A stretch of 37,978 nt of DNA from a virus. The notes under the pieces were generated by a model. It had not been told where the DNA came from. It did not search any database and saw nothing but the letters and a program-made list of their open reading frames with translations. This document shows, piece after piece, positions 4,044 through 17,074 of the stretch (position 1 is the first letter of the stretch; every line of letters starts with the position of its first letter). Both the position numbers and the translations under genes were made by a program. Location: the UHGV virus genome UHGV-0283905. One strand, 5' to 3'.

Positions 4044-4628
4044 ATGAAAAGTATCCAGGACGTCCGCAGGCAAAATCTCAACGACTTGATCGACCGTGAA
4101 TTCAATGGTGTTCAGACGCGGATGGCAGAAAAACTTGGAACTCAGGCAAATCTGGTAAACCGCTGGGCTCTTGGCAAGAAGGTTATCGGCGACCAGGTTG
4201 CACGAAAAATTGAAGCTGCCGCCAATAAACCCCGTAACTGGCTTGATATTGATCGTTCGCTTTCTCAGGAGGGTTTTCAGCCTGTCGGACCAAGCGACAT
4301 TGGTCAACTGGCGGCTCACAACCTGGAACGCTGGATGAGCGAAAGCCGCGACCTTTCAACACAGGGAAAACTTCACCGCGCATCCGGCGTAGCCCAGGTG
4401 ACAATCAGCCGCCTGTTAAACAATGAGGTCAGCGTTTCCATTTCCACCCTGGAGAATGTTGCATCCGCATTCGGGCGTCATGGCTATGAATTACTGATTC
4501 ACCCGCACGACCCTGCGACCATCAACTATGATCGCTCGCGCTACGCATTGTTACCCGAAACCGAGAAAGCAAAGATCGAAAGTTACATTGAATTTGTCAT
4601 CAACCAGAACGAAAAAAGCAAACAATAA
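4044..4628 (+). CDS. candidate immunity repressor, dual HTH (XRE-type), no peptidase S24 domain
   Basis: 194 aa; two HTH-like segments (about residues 20-45 and 115-140); no recognisable Ser/Lys autocleavage motifs; occupies the cI position opposite the Cro-like gene. Confidence 0.6.
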   Translation: MKSIQDVRRQNLNDLIDREFNGVQTRMAEKLGTQANLVNRWALGKKVIGDQVARKIEAAANKPRNWLDIDRSLSQEGFQPVGPSDIGQLAAHNLERWMSESRDLSTQGKLHRASGVAQVTISRLLNNEVSVSISTLENVASAFGRHGYELLIHPHDPATINYDRSRYALLPETEKAKIESYIEFVINQNEKSKQ

Positions 4629-12146: not shown

Positions 12147-14609
12147 TCAATTCCCTGTTAATTGCAAAACTTGCTCTTCCAGCTTTTTAACCCTGCGTCT
12201 CATCATCGCAGATTCCAGAATCAGAGCCTCTTCATAACGGATACCGTAACATTCACCAGCCTCGACGGCTTCGCGTACCAGAACCTTTGTCTGTATAAGT
12301 GGGTAAACTCCTGCAGAATGCTCTTCTTCCGTCACATCCCTGTATTCTGCCGGGGTCTCATTCCACTTGTCATAACAGATAAATGCCAGTCGTGACACAT
12401 CTATGCCTTCATTCTGAAATACACTGATAACATGCTGCGCAACTGCACCAAAGTGCCATCTTGCTCCGTCTTTACCTTTCACTTCGATCCTGTCAAGGTA
12501 CTGGTATGAAACCCATTCCACTCTTTCCCATGCGTCCAGTATTTTCTCATCAATAACCTCTGGAGCAGTCTTGAAACGCGCATCGGACAGCACCGTAAAC
12601 GCTGACTGGGTAAATCCCCCCGACCATGCACGACCAGCCAACCCAAGAGAATAAGTATTCGTTGTCGATGGTGTCATGGCTGAATCAGAAAACTGTATAT
12701 ATTCTGAATTTCCAGTAGATATTCGAATATTTCCATTTATTAGCGACATAGTGCCTTTAGTATTATCACTATTGAATAATTTCAATTGCGAACTTATACC
12801 GCCTCCCACAGCCAGAGATACATCGCCTTCAGCAAGCATTCTGAATTTATCTGCAGAAACAAGCGTCTGGTTAGCAAGGTTAAAATATTTAACCCACCAT
12901 TCAAAACGCCCTGACATAGTCCCAACGTACTGACCAAGCGCAGGGACGTGAACAACATTGCTATTTGTAGTGCCGTCTATACTGGAAATACCAGTCACCG
13001 CTGATGCAGAACTCAGAATATTATTTCTGTCACCCGGATGTTTAATTTCAACAAAGTTCCTGATACACCCTTCCTCGAAGGTAACCACGCCGGAAGAACT
13101 ATACATGGGGAATATTGACGCATAATTACTGCGTGCAGCATCTAAGAAACGAATGGTTGTAGATGCCTGCAGATCTCCTGATTCATTTTTCCCATCACAC
13201 CCAGTCATTAGAATATTACTGGCAATATTATTATTTCCCTGAACGGTGACGCCGTGCGCCTGCTTTGCGTCCGATTCAGAGTAATCAACCAGCACATCCG
13301 AAATCAGGTTACCAGTCCCCTTGCCAACAACTACTGCGGCGTATTTTGGGTTGTTAGCCATTACACTGCTAATGATATTATTCGTTGGGGCAGTTTCCGT
13401 CTCAGTTCCATTGTAAACAACGTGCTGACACTCTTCACCAATAACATTGCTGACAATGTTATATTTTGCTGCTGTTTTAAGTTCCACTGCACCAAACTGA
13501 GGATAATTTCTGGCTATCACACCATCAATTAGCGTATTTTGCGATGAATCAAAAAGCACACAACCTGCTTTTTTATTATTTGCGAACCCTAAATACTCTC
13601 CTCTTATATCTCTAACAATGTAACCTGACGGAATACCATTATCCGGATAAGCGATCAAGCTAAATCCTGGTCCTCGCGTATTTGTAAATCTGATATTTTT
13701 AACCGATACATCATGGCCACCTGAAAATGACACCTGGTGTCCCTGCACACTATCATCTGATTTATTTCCCATAATTGTTAGCGTACTAAGCATGCCACCA
13801 TCGGGCATGTTAAAAACCAGATGATTACCATCTCTGTCATACTGTTTTATCGTTCCCCCACCTGTTCCGTACAAGCCACAACGTGAAAGAGAAACTAAAG
13901 ATGTATTGAATACCCCTTCCGGAACAAAAACACTGCTAAACGAATGTAATGATTTTGTAAAAGCATCCTTGTTATCATTTAAGATTCCATTTTGAGCTCC
14001 AAAATCCTTAATGCTGACACCATCACGCATCTTATCCTGGAACGTTCTGTATACCGCTCCAGAACCATACTGAATAAACCAACCAAAACCACCAATAACT
14101 CCGGCGATTGCAGCATCGACATAATTACGCATTGAGCGATTATTTACAGCGTCCTGCTCAAGTGATGGATCGGCAAGGTTAGATATTCTGTTTTGCTTTG
14201 CATCGTAATATTTTGCAAGCAAAGATGGTTTCATCAATGCACGTCTGAACCACCCAAAACATCGCTGGATCAGCATCGTCAGGTAGTCAAATGCATCCTC
14301 ATGAACTTCGGGGAAAAATTTTCCCTGATTGCGAAGATCAGTCTCCTGCACCACATCAAGCACACGCTCTATCGTGATTCGCCAGCCAGCAGCAAGCGGC
14401 GACGGAAGAACCACTGCACCGCCACTATAAGTTCCCGCCCCTGTTACCGTATAACCAGCATCCAGCACTAGTTTTGTAACGTTACCGTTAAGGTCAGACA
14501 CCTGAACAACCAGGTCGGATTTTTTGAAAATACGGAAGGTATACGGAAATGATGTCGTAACGCCGTTACCTGTGTATTCGTTGTGGTCAACTTCGGTTGA
14601 GACCGTCAT
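12147..14609 (-). CDS. tailspike / tail fibre with central beta-helix (depolymerase-like) and C-terminal S74-type intramolecular chaperone
   Basis: 820 aa; conserved N-terminal particle-binding segment; AT-richer middle with beta-helix-like repeats; C-terminal LSDARFK...RWHFGAVAQ autoproteolytic chaperone motif. Confidence 0.85.
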   Translation of the reverse strand: MTVSTEVDHNEYTGNGVTTSFPYTFRIFKKSDLVVQVSDLNGNVTKLVLDAGYTVTGAGTYSGGAVVLPSPLAAGWRITIERVLDVVQETDLRNQGKFFPEVHEDAFDYLTMLIQRCFGWFRRALMKPSLLAKYYDAKQNRISNLADPSLEQDAVNNRSMRNYVDAAIAGVIGGFGWFIQYGSGAVYRTFQDKMRDGVSIKDFGAQNGILNDNKDAFTKSLHSFSSVFVPEGVFNTSLVSLSRCGLYGTGGGTIKQYDRDGNHLVFNMPDGGMLSTLTIMGNKSDDSVQGHQVSFSGGHDVSVKNIRFTNTRGPGFSLIAYPDNGIPSGYIVRDIRGEYLGFANNKKAGCVLFDSSQNTLIDGVIARNYPQFGAVELKTAAKYNIVSNVIGEECQHVVYNGTETETAPTNNIISSVMANNPKYAAVVVGKGTGNLISDVLVDYSESDAKQAHGVTVQGNNNIASNILMTGCDGKNESGDLQASTTIRFLDAARSNYASIFPMYSSSGVVTFEEGCIRNFVEIKHPGDRNNILSSASAVTGISSIDGTTNSNVVHVPALGQYVGTMSGRFEWWVKYFNLANQTLVSADKFRMLAEGDVSLAVGGGISSQLKLFNSDNTKGTMSLINGNIRISTGNSEYIQFSDSAMTPSTTNTYSLGLAGRAWSGGFTQSAFTVLSDARFKTAPEVIDEKILDAWERVEWVSYQYLDRIEVKGKDGARWHFGAVAQHVISVFQNEGIDVSRLAFICYDKWNETPAEYRDVTEEEHSAGVYPLIQTKVLVREAVEAGECYGIRYEEALILESAMMRRRVKKLEEQVLQLTGN

Positions 14610-14783: not shown

Positions 14784-14805
14784 TTATTGCATGGAGAAGA
14801 TTAAG

Positions 14806-15063
14806 ATGCAGCAGTATCACTATCCACTGGAAGAGGGATTTACCGAAAGGATTCACACGCCGGGAGGCGTCAGGTCACTGGTGGAGGGATCGCACTTGAT
14901 GAAATTACTCCGGGATCTCGATAAGGATGGATTTAATGTCGATGGCCCACTTGCCGAACTGACTGCACTGATTAACTACGTCACCAGCTCACAGATGTCT
15001 ATGCGGGATCTGCAAACACATCTCGACTATTGTGCCGAACAATTACGAAAACAAACCAGATAA
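14806..15063 (+). CDS. small SOS-controlled protein, candidate antirepressor (85 aa)
   Basis: ATG 14806 preferred (GGAGAAG 6 nt upstream; table start 14791); paralogous to the C-terminal domain of the Bro-N protein. Confidence 0.55.
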   Translation: MQQYHYPLEEGFTERIHTPGGVRSLVEGSHLMKLLRDLDKDGFNVDGPLAELTALINYVTSSQMSMRDLQTHLDYCAEQLRKQTR

Positions 15064-15094: not shown

Positions 15095-15109
15095 TTACCT
15101 TTGAGGTAA
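15095..15109. promoter_or_regulatory. dyad site TTACCtttgaGGTAA
   Basis: Exact motif, flanked by inverted GGAGTGC / GCACTCC. Confidence 0.45.
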
Positions 15110-15365: not shown

Positions 15366-15383
15366 TAAGTGGAGATAACCACC

Positions 15384-16094
15384 ATGGCTAATGCTCAAAC
15401 TGCCATCTTCAAATTTGAATCTGTTAACCCTATCCGTTCCATCATTATCGATGGCCAACCATGGTTTGTAGCCCAAGACGTTTGTAGTGCGCTGCGTATC
15501 CAAAACGTCACCCAAGCACTTGAAAAACTGGATGATGATGAAAGGTCTATGTTCAACATAGGGCATGAACATCGTGCAATTTTTGACAGCCGAGTAAAAG
15601 AGATCAACATCATCTCCGAGTCAGGCCTCTACACACTGATCCTCCGCTGCCGCGACGCAGTGACACCAGGCACTATCCCCTACCGCTTTCGCAAATGGGT
15701 TACAGGTGATGTTCTTCCTCAGATCCGTCGCACCGGAAGTTACATTAAAAACTCGCTCCCGCAGGAAGAACGCATAAAGATGGTTGCCGACCAGGTAGCC
15801 AGCGCCACAGCATCAGCAGTGATGCAGGCAATGAAGGTAGAGAACAAAACCTACAGCGCCCCACTGAAGCCCGGCTACCGCAGCCTGATTCATTCGCCGT
15901 CTGGTGTTCTTGGCCTGACGGAGAACTCACTGCTGATGAATCTGCTGAACCAGTTACAGGACGACGGGCATGACGTATCGGGCGCGGCGGCGGAGCTGAC
16001 CACCATGTTCTGCTACATCGTCGGTGTGAGCAAATGCCTGCGTGATATCCAGACGCACGCGGAGTACATCAGCGACAAAGCAGGGTTCTTCTGA
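15384..16094 (+). CDS. Bro-N domain protein (antirepressor-type) with C-terminal domain paralogous to the upstream 85-aa protein
   Basis: ATG 15384 with GGAGA RBS (table start is GTG 15369); N-terminus FKFESVNPIRSIIIDGQPWFVAQDVCSALRI fits Bro-N. Confidence 0.75.
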   Translation: MANAQTAIFKFESVNPIRSIIIDGQPWFVAQDVCSALRIQNVTQALEKLDDDERSMFNIGHEHRAIFDSRVKEINIISESGLYTLILRCRDAVTPGTIPYRFRKWVTGDVLPQIRRTGSYIKNSLPQEERIKMVADQVASATASAVMQAMKVENKTYSAPLKPGYRSLIHSPSGVLGLTENSLLMNLLNQLQDDGHDVSGAAAELTTMFCYIVGVSKCLRDIQTHAEYISDKAGFF

Positions 16095-16160
16095 CGGGCG
16101 GCGGCACAGGGATGTGCCTTTAAAATAATCATTGGCGATGTGATGTAGATTCGCGTAATA

Positions 16161-16175
16161 TTACCTTAAAGGTAA
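16161..16175. promoter_or_regulatory. dyad site TTACCttaaaGGTAA overlapping the RBS region of the 55-aa gene
   Basis: Exact motif, followed directly by AGGAGG and ATG 16188. Confidence 0.5.
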
Positions 16176-16187
16176 AGGAGGCGCGAT

Positions 16188-16355
16188 ATGACAGCGTTGA
16201 AAAATCGTACTCAGCACAATGAACAAGCCAAGCAATGCTGGGATGTCATTGGAAAAGTTATGCTTGGTCGCGCAAGCAAAGAGCGCGACAAGGATATGGT
16301 TTACCAGACAGGAACATCTTTTAGCGACTTCAAGGCGGCATTTCGCTCCAAATAG
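16188..16355 (+). CDS. small hypothetical protein (55 aa); not in the ORF track
   Basis: ATG 16188 with AGGAGG RBS; translation MTALKNRTQHNEQAKQCWDVIGKVMLGRASKERDKDMVYQTGTSFSDFKAAFRSK; stop TAG 16353..16355. Confidence 0.4.
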   Translation: MTALKNRTQHNEQAKQCWDVIGKVMLGRASKERDKDMVYQTGTSFSDFKAAFRSK

Positions 16356-16375
16356 AAGCACATCAGGAGTTTTCC

Positions 16376-16819
16376 TTGAAGTTTAACATTAGAATATCTA
16401 ATAGTTTTCTACATGGGGAAAGCAACACCCCTTTCGCTGTAGACGGACCTTTCCTTACTGATGATGAAATAAAAATCATACAAAGGTTTTTAGAGGATGT
16501 TGCCAATGGAAGGGCGCTTGTTGGAAAAAACAAGCCATCGTGGGTTGATGATAACCATGATAAAATTCCCGGCTCAGACAATTATGAGCAAGAGAATTAT
16601 TGGCATTATCATTGTGGGCCAACATGGTATCCAAACACATTTAAGAATTATACCATTAACTTAAATTTCAACCCTGGCGGAATGCATTCTAATGAATGCA
16701 TTCATTATGCAAAAAATGATAATGAAATTGTCATTGTTGGATTTTCAAGAGAACACATACCTTTCCTTTCATCAGATGGAAACAACAATCCGCTTTTTAA
16801 TGATGAAGAAGAAGAATAA
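16376..16819 (+). CDS. AT-rich acidic hypothetical protein (moron), 147 aa, TTG start
   Basis: Markedly lower GC than neighbours by eye; CAGGAG 6 nt before TTG; about 23 Asp/Glu vs about 11 Lys/Arg; C-terminal NDEEEE; followed by a strong terminator. Confidence 0.5.
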   Translation: MKFNIRISNSFLHGESNTPFAVDGPFLTDDEIKIIQRFLEDVANGRALVGKNKPSWVDDNHDKIPGSDNYEQENYWHYHCGPTWYPNTFKNYTINLNFNPGGMHSNECIHYAKNDNEIVIVGFSREHIPFLSSDGNNNPLFNDEEEE

Positions 16820-16840
16820 GCCCGCGCTGCGGGCTTTTTT
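16819..16840 (+). terminator. intrinsic terminator after the AT-rich moron
   Basis: AGCCCGC-gct-GCGGGCT hairpin plus TTTTTT. Confidence 0.75.
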
Positions 16841-16912
16841 GTGGACGAAACAAAAGTCAGTGCTACACTCATTGACGCCACATTGAGGTGGCTTATAGAT
16901 GGAAATTTCACA

Positions 16913-17074
16913 ATGAAAAAAGCATTTGCTGCACTGTTCGTTTTGTTGTCTCTGGTAGCTTCAACTCAGGCCTTTGCCGGTCGTTGTCAGCACGACAGCG
17001 ATACTGCCGCTGACGGCTCCCGCTGCGGTGGGCGTTCTGCGGATTCCCGCCCGGGCGGCGGTGGCATTCGTTAA
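16913..17074 (+). CDS. small secreted peptide (53 aa) with signal peptide
   Basis: Internal ATG of table ORF 16841..17074; MKKAFAALFVLLSLVASTQAFA then a 31-aa Gly/Arg/Asp-rich part with two Cys. Confidence 0.4.
   Translation: MKKAFAALFVLLSLVASTQAFAGRCQHDSDTAADGSRCGGRSADSRPGGGGIR

Follow-up and report, generated by a model that had tools for sequence, protein, structure and literature searches.

A probable toxin-antitoxin-like gene pair with a predicted RelE/ParE-type fold in an exchangeable cargo slot of an ε15-like temperate phage

RelE, YoeB, YafQ and HigB, which are ribosome-dependent mRNA interferases, are toxins of type II toxin-antitoxin (TA) modules. The topology of RelE is well established: an N-terminal strand and two helices pack against an antiparallel sheet of three to four strands. 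A related arrangement is PaaR2-PaaA2-ParE2 of E. coli O157 prophages, in which PaaA2 is a small helical antitoxin without a DNA-binding domain that is regulated by a separate protein. For YafQ it is known that mRNA cleavage depends on His50, His87 and Phe91 (PMC7781912). Here we describe two adjoining genes of 55 and 147 amino acids (aa) in the viral genome UHGV-0283905, a stretch of 37,978 nucleotides (nt) that is referred to below as the window. The window represents a temperate podovirus of E. coli that is of the ε15/phiV10-like type (Uetakevirus); in this region its identity to phages HEMP4 and phiv142-3 is 96-99%. We consider it probable that the two genes constitute a type II TA-like module of an uncatalogued family. 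The cassette consists of the following features:

16176-16181, plus strand: Shine-Dalgarno sequence AGGAGG of the 55-aa gene, read from the sequence, 6 nt from the ATG
16188-16355, plus strand: 55-aa gene with ATG start, the proposed antitoxin, basic (isoelectric point, pI, 9.8) and helical
16365-16369, plus strand: Shine-Dalgarno sequence AGGAG of the 147-aa gene, read from the sequence, with a 6-nt spacer to the TTG
16376-16819, plus strand: 147-aa gene with TTG start, the proposed toxin, with a predicted RelE/ParE-type fold
16818-16842, plus strand: intrinsic terminator, AAGCCCGCGCTGCGGGCTT followed by TTTTTG

An AlphaFold2 (AF2) model of the 147-aa protein, based on an alignment of 31 sequences, reached a predicted local distance difference test score (pLDDT) of 90.3 and a predicted template modelling score (pTM) of 0.85. 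The model is a compact alpha/beta fold that contains the elements listed above for RelE in the same order (beta, alpha, alpha, beta, beta, beta, beta). Foldseek places YafQ, RelE, YoeB and ParE in the top ranks, with probabilities up to 0.89 and template modelling (TM) scores, normalised to the target, of 0.5-0.65, and two independent structure searches agree on this fold. Judging from the model, the 147-aa protein very likely has the RelE/ParE toxin fold. The viral structure library BFVD yielded no significant match, and a sequence search of the PDB gave chance-level matches only.

In terms of sequence the family is small and uncatalogued. An exhaustive profile search against 1.84 billion representative proteins returned 119 relatives only. 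Pfam, NCBIfam and PADLOC models gave no match for the 147-aa protein (none at E≤1 in the family-model scans), in agreement with an earlier note on this DNA that had recognised no family, and in PHROGs only families of unknown function were matched. Scanning 94 family representatives with Pfam (E≤0.01) gave no relevant match either, PF13957 included. One candidate relative, the related-locus match L030, was discarded as it is ribosomal protein L13 with a chance GKNKPSW-like string.

Conservation was computed over the same 94 representatives, at a mean column identity of 12%. Three histidines (H77, H79 and H127) are invariant, and K53, N52, Y78, Y111 and F130 are conserved in at least 90% of the sequences. 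On the model H77-x-H79 lies on one strand, H110/Y111 on the next, and H127-x-x-F130 past the last strand. Conserved histidines and aromatic residues on the sheet and past the last strand are shared with the RelE/YoeB/YafQ/HigB group; mapping by eye, with no significant sequence support, would equate the cluster with the H50, H87 and F91 site of YafQ (PMC7781912). We give RNase (ribonuclease) chemistry of the 147-aa protein an even chance. Its motifs are GKNKPSW, WHYHCGP, ECIHY, IVGFSxEHIPF, NPLF and an acidic tail. Compared with RelE, YoeB, YafQ and HigB it is about 55 residues longer, carries the conserved GKNKPSW as an inserted loop-strand and has the NPLF/acidic tail at its C-terminus; furthermore it matches no curated model and is acidic in this clade. 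HIPF and NPLF are nearly invariant even though they lie in the low-confidence C-terminal tail (residues 127-147), and thus may represent a short linear motif for binding. The acidic DEEEE end is specific to the enteric clade.

Like its counterparts in the RelE group, the 147-aa protein is encoded directly 3' of a small partner gene. A co-directional gene is located -1 to 31 nt upstream of the large gene in all 13 loci measured (20 nt here), and these small, tightly spaced genes are kept paired across hosts, as is usual for type II TA modules. The 55-aa protein belongs to PHROG 8607, of unknown function, and has no match in Pfam, NCBIfam or PADLOC. In nearly every relative examined the gene directly upstream ends in an equivalent of this protein: in 13 further loci, belonging to enterics, Pasteurellaceae and Neisseriaceae, its last 50 or so aa align to the full length of the 55-aa protein, with the shared pattern …A-x-x-[CY]-[WK]-…-[VI]-L-x-R-…-[YF]-x-[FY]-…-S-[FVR]-x-D-[FI]-[KR]-x-A…. 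The length of this partner varies with the host: enterics and Proteus have 55-62 aa, Klebsiella has 102 aa, and the versions of Pasteurellaceae and Neisseriaceae reach 160-211 aa. Since its C-terminal module is the part that aligns, the 55-aa protein represents the minimal conserved partner module. There is little doubt in our view that the two genes are a functional pair. The AF2 model of the 55-aa protein consists of a helix at residues 2-41 and another at 45-53, with modest confidence (pLDDT 71.5); a helical prediction of this kind would be typical of peptides that acquire their fold upon binding a partner. The protein is unrelated to the RelE-type antitoxins RelB, DinJ, YefM and HigA and shows no match to a helix-turn-helix (HTH), ribbon-helix-helix, AbrB or Phd DNA-binding domain.

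The pair is patchily distributed over mobile elements, again as in the RelE group. Prophages of three morphotypes carry it. In ε15-like prophages of E. coli, Klebsiella aerogenes and Serratia it follows a Bro-N anti-repressor-like gene, Klebsiella lambdoid prophages have it in their nin region, and in an H. influenzae myovirus prophage it lies in the tail region, flanked by tape-measure and baseplate genes. In one Pasteurellaceae genome it adjoins a giant polyvalent MuF/ART protein. The pair also forms islets in core operons: in Erwinia the two genes stand alone between accA and a gene of the IF-2B family, in Kingella between nuoK and nuoL. Finally it is present on 37 plasmids, many of them of 2.7-4.6 kb. 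On the 2,959-bp plasmid p1_020001, which was inspected in full, a Rep-like protein and the pair are the only convincing genes, and the same arrangement of 60 and 152 aa recurs on another plasmid, of 3,603 bp. Such a pattern is characteristic of selfish TA or defence modules. Two small plasmid-like replicons contain perfect palindromes between the Rep-like gene and the pair (L049, 2040-2092, with 26-nt arms; L034, 815-862, with 24-nt arms). These are unrelated to the phage dyad described below and may be origin or regulatory elements.

Both open reading frames (ORFs) are genuine genes, given that homologues are known at 36-85% identity and that the ratios of nonsynonymous to synonymous substitution rates (0.11-0.19 for the small gene, 0.07-0.08 for the large gene) point to purifying selection. 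The earlier note had placed both ORFs at these positions, with a consensus ribosome-binding site (RBS) before the first, a good RBS before the TTG of the second and a terminator behind it, and each of these elements was recovered; the terminator stem (16818-16836) has 8 pairs, 6 of them G-C, with a 3-nt loop and a T-run after it. The TTG start must be used because the conserved F11, G14 and D23 precede the first internal methionine (M103). This start is common to other enteric phage copies of the large gene, Erwinia having GTG, and a Shine-Dalgarno-like sequence is found at the same junction in other enteric loci too. Owing to its TTG start the large gene is routinely overlooked or mis-called. 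The phiv142-3 record (L001, MN187550.1) has an out-of-frame 52-aa ORF annotated inside it at 4413-4571, the real gene being absent from the annotation. Gene callers also overlooked the large gene in locus L043, where a supposed toxin loss was dismissed as the gene is intact and merely uncalled, and the small partner on plasmids L048 and L049. In every listed E. coli record (RefSeq) both genes are named "hypothetical protein". Searching Rfam gave only sub-threshold Trp and Phe leader matches, which are due to the terminator hairpin.

The cassette is preceded by two elements that it shares with other cargos of the same phage group:

16132-16161, plus strand: putative sigma-70 promoter, -35 TTGGCG (16132-16137), 18-nt spacer, -10 TAATAT (16156-16161)
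16161-16175, no strand assigned: dyad TTACCTTAAAGGTAA (TTACCTT-A-AAGGTAA, a perfect 7-1-7 palindrome), a copy of TTACC-N5-GGTAA

The promoter matches 8 of 12 positions where the scan threshold was 9 of 12, and was hence called by reading; its segment is conserved across cargos. The whole cassette occurs in 77 of 5,426 complete E. coli genomes, always on the chromosome. A further 23 complete E. coli genomes match over the promoter and dyad alone, which make up the first 37 bases. Two of these 23, on inspection, have in the slot a 108-aa gene and a 170-aa toxin named as YafO-family by the Prokaryotic Genome Annotation Pipeline. Phage TL-2011b has a 59-aa and 181-aa pair there, with gp44 scoring 26.3 bits to YafO_toxin (cut-off 25). 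Homology between prophages with differing cargos extends through GCGTAATATTACCTnAAnGGTAAA and ends directly after the dyad (GGTAAA), to return at the terminator, from where the sequence is common to TL-2011b and other phages with different cargo. Therefore the slot swaps TA-like cargos behind a fixed promoter and operator. By analogy of position, this equivalence with recognised toxin modules lends independent support to the functional assignment. Compared with the YafN-YafO and YafO-family pairs (TL-2011b, PCN033-type), our pair has the same slot, promoter, operator and 52-53-aa downstream gene; it is alike in size range (132-181 aa) and AT-richness, and the YafO-family proteins are mostly acidic too. 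However, none of the 94 representatives matches PF13957, and the upstream partners are unrelated. The view of the earlier note that this is an accessory cassette is borne out: it is horizontally exchanged, has its own RBSs and terminator, and is oriented opposite to both its neighbourhoods, the tailspike gene on one side and the genes that follow from 17598 on the other.

Contrary to what had been supposed, the dyad itself is not private to the cassette. The window contains 15 copies at up to one mismatch (10 of them exact), where 0.57 would be expected by chance and 100 shuffled sequences gave 3 at most. Copies start at 1605, 1667, 3589, 3926, 3974, 4686, 4748, 10002, 14482, 14714, 15095, 16161, 33667, 36734 and 36752, nearly all of them intergenic by reading. 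Several begin on the last T of a -10-like hexamer. This applies to the cassette, where that T is position 16161, and the geometry is the same at 15095, where the scan did call a promoter. The earlier note was right about the presence of the TTACC-N5-GGTAA site, but not about its overlap with the RBS: the dyad ends at 16175 and abuts the RBS at 16176. Two pairs of copies (1605/1667 and 4686/4748) are spaced 62 bp apart. The dyads at 1605 and 36734 end 2-3 nt from a minus-strand start codon, and there the GGT(A/T)A half may double as Shine-Dalgarno sequence. We also considered the dyad as an RNA hairpin that sequesters the RBS. This is unlikely with a stem of only 5-7 bp, and it is further disfavoured by the Serratia locus, whose half-sites are separated by a different spacer and are some 45 nt away from the start codon.

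The copies cluster around, and five of them flank, a gene for a 194-aa protein with tandem HTH regions (4044-4628, plus strand; YdaS-like at residues 21-61, HTH_3 at 106-147). Others precede the integrase gene (probable by size and position), a 90-aa ORF, the Bro-N gene and the cassette. The repressor of phage ZX5 has been shown to shut off lytic transcription (PMC9782041). By position and LacI-type HTH, the 194-aa protein appears to be its counterpart and the likely immunity repressor. As read from the sequence, the dyad is probably the operator of a phage-encoded regulator, presumably this 194-aa protein. That the cassette is under repressor control we rate as slightly favoured. The Serratia prophage has retained ATTACC-N5-GGTAAT ahead of its own pair. 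No upstream dyad in common was found for the non-phage copies, which fits an antitoxin without DNA-binding activity. With a phage-wide dyad upstream and no match to a DNA-binding domain, the 55-aa protein does not resemble an autoregulating antitoxin. Compared with PaaR2-PaaA2-ParE2, the cassette lacks a dedicated regulator gene and its control is apparently exerted via the phage-wide operator. Literature searches yielded no description of the 147-aa protein family or of a TTACC-N5-GGTAA operator. The ε15 genome paper is said to possibly give a similar operator consensus.

The composition of the 147-aa gene deviates clearly from its surroundings. Its GC content is 35.1%, and 29.7% at third codon positions (GC3), against a window mean of 49.2% (standard deviation 3.7%). 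This is about 3.8 standard deviations below the mean, and the gene is the lowest-GC of all 444-bp windows in the 38 kb. The AT-richness against the background that the earlier note had seen is thus real, and the composition is foreign to the phage. Its interpretation as a mark of recent acquisition does not hold, because the large gene is AT-rich with respect to its flanks in every host examined; in Serratia, Erwinia, Klebsiella, Kingella and Aeromonas, too, it falls 8-19 GC points short of its surroundings, and YafO-type cargos are likewise AT-rich. Low GC is a property of such mobile cassettes and provides no timestamp of arrival. Neither a normal GC content nor a match to a virion or housekeeping protein, which together would have spoken against the earlier note, was observed. 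The synonymous divergence between the window and loci L036 and L042 is 1.4-2.2 for the large gene and 0.5-0.7 for the small gene (2-3 times higher in the large one), and the large gene has a GC3 of 30-43% across its E. coli alleles. The two genes may have partly different recombination histories.

Several other explanations have to be weighed against a TA-like module. On account of its charge the 147-aa protein had been taken for a possible DNA mimic, anti-restriction or anti-CRISPR factor or charge-based superinfection-exclusion factor. The protein is indeed strongly acidic, as the earlier note had counted (exactly 23 Asp/Glu, pI 4.84, C-terminus NDEEEE), and its position in an accessory island would suit such a role. 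Acidity is, however, not a conserved trait: the family has a median pI of 6.9 with a range of 4.8-10.7, and the acidic character is specific to the enteric clade, where 31 of 31 members of that alignment have a pI below 7. Moreover, the fold is RelE/ParE-like and no mimic of the Ocr or ArdA type is among the structure matches, the conserved residues are His, Lys, Tyr and Phe instead of acidic patches, and the gene has an obligate partner. We regard a charge-based role as very improbable. A non-toxin protein of RelE fold, such as an accessory factor that binds the ribosome or RNA, would likewise suit the acidic enteric clade. Its upstream partner would then be linked to it in function yet non-neutralising, possibly a membrane or secreted protein in Pasteurellaceae, which would suit the signal-peptide-like N-terminus of the long partners; that no sequence link to a validated toxin was found also points this way. 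Nonetheless we think this unlikely, as the invariant histidines imply catalysis and the pair is patchily distributed on mobile elements, being the sole identifiable non-replication cargo of a plasmid of about 3 kb, which is typical of addiction or defence modules.

Two further readings retain an active protein. Phage T4 RegB, an RNase of early phage development, has a RelE/YoeB-like fold, and the 147-aa protein could similarly remodel host or phage mRNA in lytic growth, with the 55-aa protein as timer, chaperone or inhibitor instead of an addiction antitoxin. The supported RelE-like fold agrees with this, as does the promoter, whose phage-wide operator also precedes anti-repressor-like, integrase and early-region genes and points to expression on induction or infection. 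The pair, however, also occurs without a phage, on the Erwinia and Kingella chromosomes and on plasmids of about 3 kb, where a role in phage development would be senseless, and we hold an early RNase to be improbable. Alternatively the large gene might encode a ParE-like, non-nucleolytic toxin, for example a gyrase poison, accompanied by a small helical antitoxin similar to PaaA2. In favour of this, the predicted partner is short, helical and peptide-like and lacks a DNA-binding fold. The residue pattern of the 147-aa protein is RNase-like and not ParE-like, though, with an invariant histidine cluster that resembles RNase-type sites such as the YafQ residues (PMC7781912), and a gyrase poison or similar toxin seems quite unlikely.

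A TA-like module with a RelE-fold toxin remains the reading that we prefer, although a number of observations weigh against it. The structural scores are moderate. No significant sequence link to any characterised toxin was obtained with Pfam, NCBIfam, PADLOC, profile-profile or pairwise comparison: hhalign against YafO-type profiles and sequences gave E values of 0.025, 0.1 and 0.47 and against YafQ 0.56, none of them significant, and Smith-Waterman alignments to known toxins were no better than shuffles. The hhalign register is consistent (WHYH pairs with RHTH or AHIH, TSxxVIHY with TSDxFLVY), at the same non-significant E values. The long partners of 160-211 aa (L013-L025, L027 and L028) have a conserved hydrophobic N-terminus that resembles a signal peptide; their middle part is helical, and they have no Pfam match. 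Such an N-terminus is hard to reconcile with a cytoplasmic antitoxin. In this clade the charge polarity is inverted with respect to the textbook situation, the putative toxin having a pI of 4.8 and the putative antitoxin one of 9.8. Finally, if the repressor binds the dyad the cassette would be silent in lysogens, unlike what is expected when a prophage simply protects its host.

For a TA-like module we propose the following course of events. Upon derepression, or from a leaky promoter, a single transcript would run from about 16168 to the terminator. The 55-aa peptide would be made first and efficiently, from its ATG behind the consensus AGGAGG, and the toxin would be translated less from its weak TTG start, so that the antitoxin is kept in excess. 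The peptide would then fold onto the toxin, mask the histidine face and neutralise it. Once the peptide is lost, free toxin, most likely a translation-linked mRNA endonuclease like YafQ, YoeB and YafO, would cleave mRNA and cause growth arrest. Transcription would be wired in trans to the phage regulon through the one TTACC-N5-GGTAA copy on the -10/+1 region of the promoter, with the module as occupant of an exchangeable cargo slot beside the anti-repressor gene. The benefit might be maintenance of the plasmid or prophage, or abortion of infection by competing phages. A more specific version, which we put forward tentatively and consider rather doubtful, is that in ε15-like prophages an uncatalogued RelE-superfamily toxin and a new antitoxin module without DNA-binding domain, short in enterics and fused to a signal-peptide-like N-terminal domain in Pasteurellaceae and Neisseriaceae, stand directly under the master repressor of the prophage. 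The lysis-lysogeny switch would then determine the balance of toxin and antitoxin, and the pair would serve as a translation shut-off triggered by induction or superinfection instead of a self-regulated addiction module.

The cassette forms part of a short plus-strand island. On one side lies the tailspike gene (12147-14609) and on the other the genes that follow from 17598, all of them on the minus strand. The other members of the island, and a hairpin in front of the pair, are:

14791-15063, plus strand: 90-aa ORF, island member
15369-16094, plus strand: Bro-N anti-repressor-like gene, island member, precedes the 55-aa gene
16103-16118, plus strand: hairpin GGCACA-N4-TGTGCC followed by TTTAAAATAAT, an inverted repeat directly 3' of the Bro-N gene
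16916-17074, plus strand: 52-aa signal-peptide protein, island member, 3' of the 147-aa gene

From its sequence the hairpin at 16103-16118 is probably a weak terminator that parts the cassette from the upstream gene, and it is kept in sibling prophages irrespective of cargo. The 90-aa ORF and the adjoining Bro-N protein, in its C-terminal domain, are homologous (both match PHROG 450 and 15539), and each of the two genes has its own dyad copy in front. The 52-aa protein has a tail rich in Gly, Arg and Asp behind a clear signal peptide (…LVASTQAFA|G), belongs to PHROG 14503 ('membrane associated protein', moron category), and is kept 3' of the slot whichever cargo is present.

Overall, the type II-like module with a RelE-fold toxin is a known kind of system, whereas neither this toxin family nor its partner module nor the way in which the pair is wired in trans to a prophage operator is catalogued in the libraries and papers searched. 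Two genes that are "hypothetical" in all listed records among the 77 complete E. coli genomes are hereby given a testable function, and the same re-annotation applies where homologues are carried by dozens of small plasmids or occur in Haemophilus, Neisseriaceae, Klebsiella, Serratia and Erwinia. If the assignment is true, the RelE/ParE superfamily would gain a further toxin family together with a novel type of antitoxin. The assignment would then also explain the cargo of some "cryptic" enterobacterial plasmids of about 3 kb, and provide a case of a TA module that is regulated in trans by a prophage repressor.
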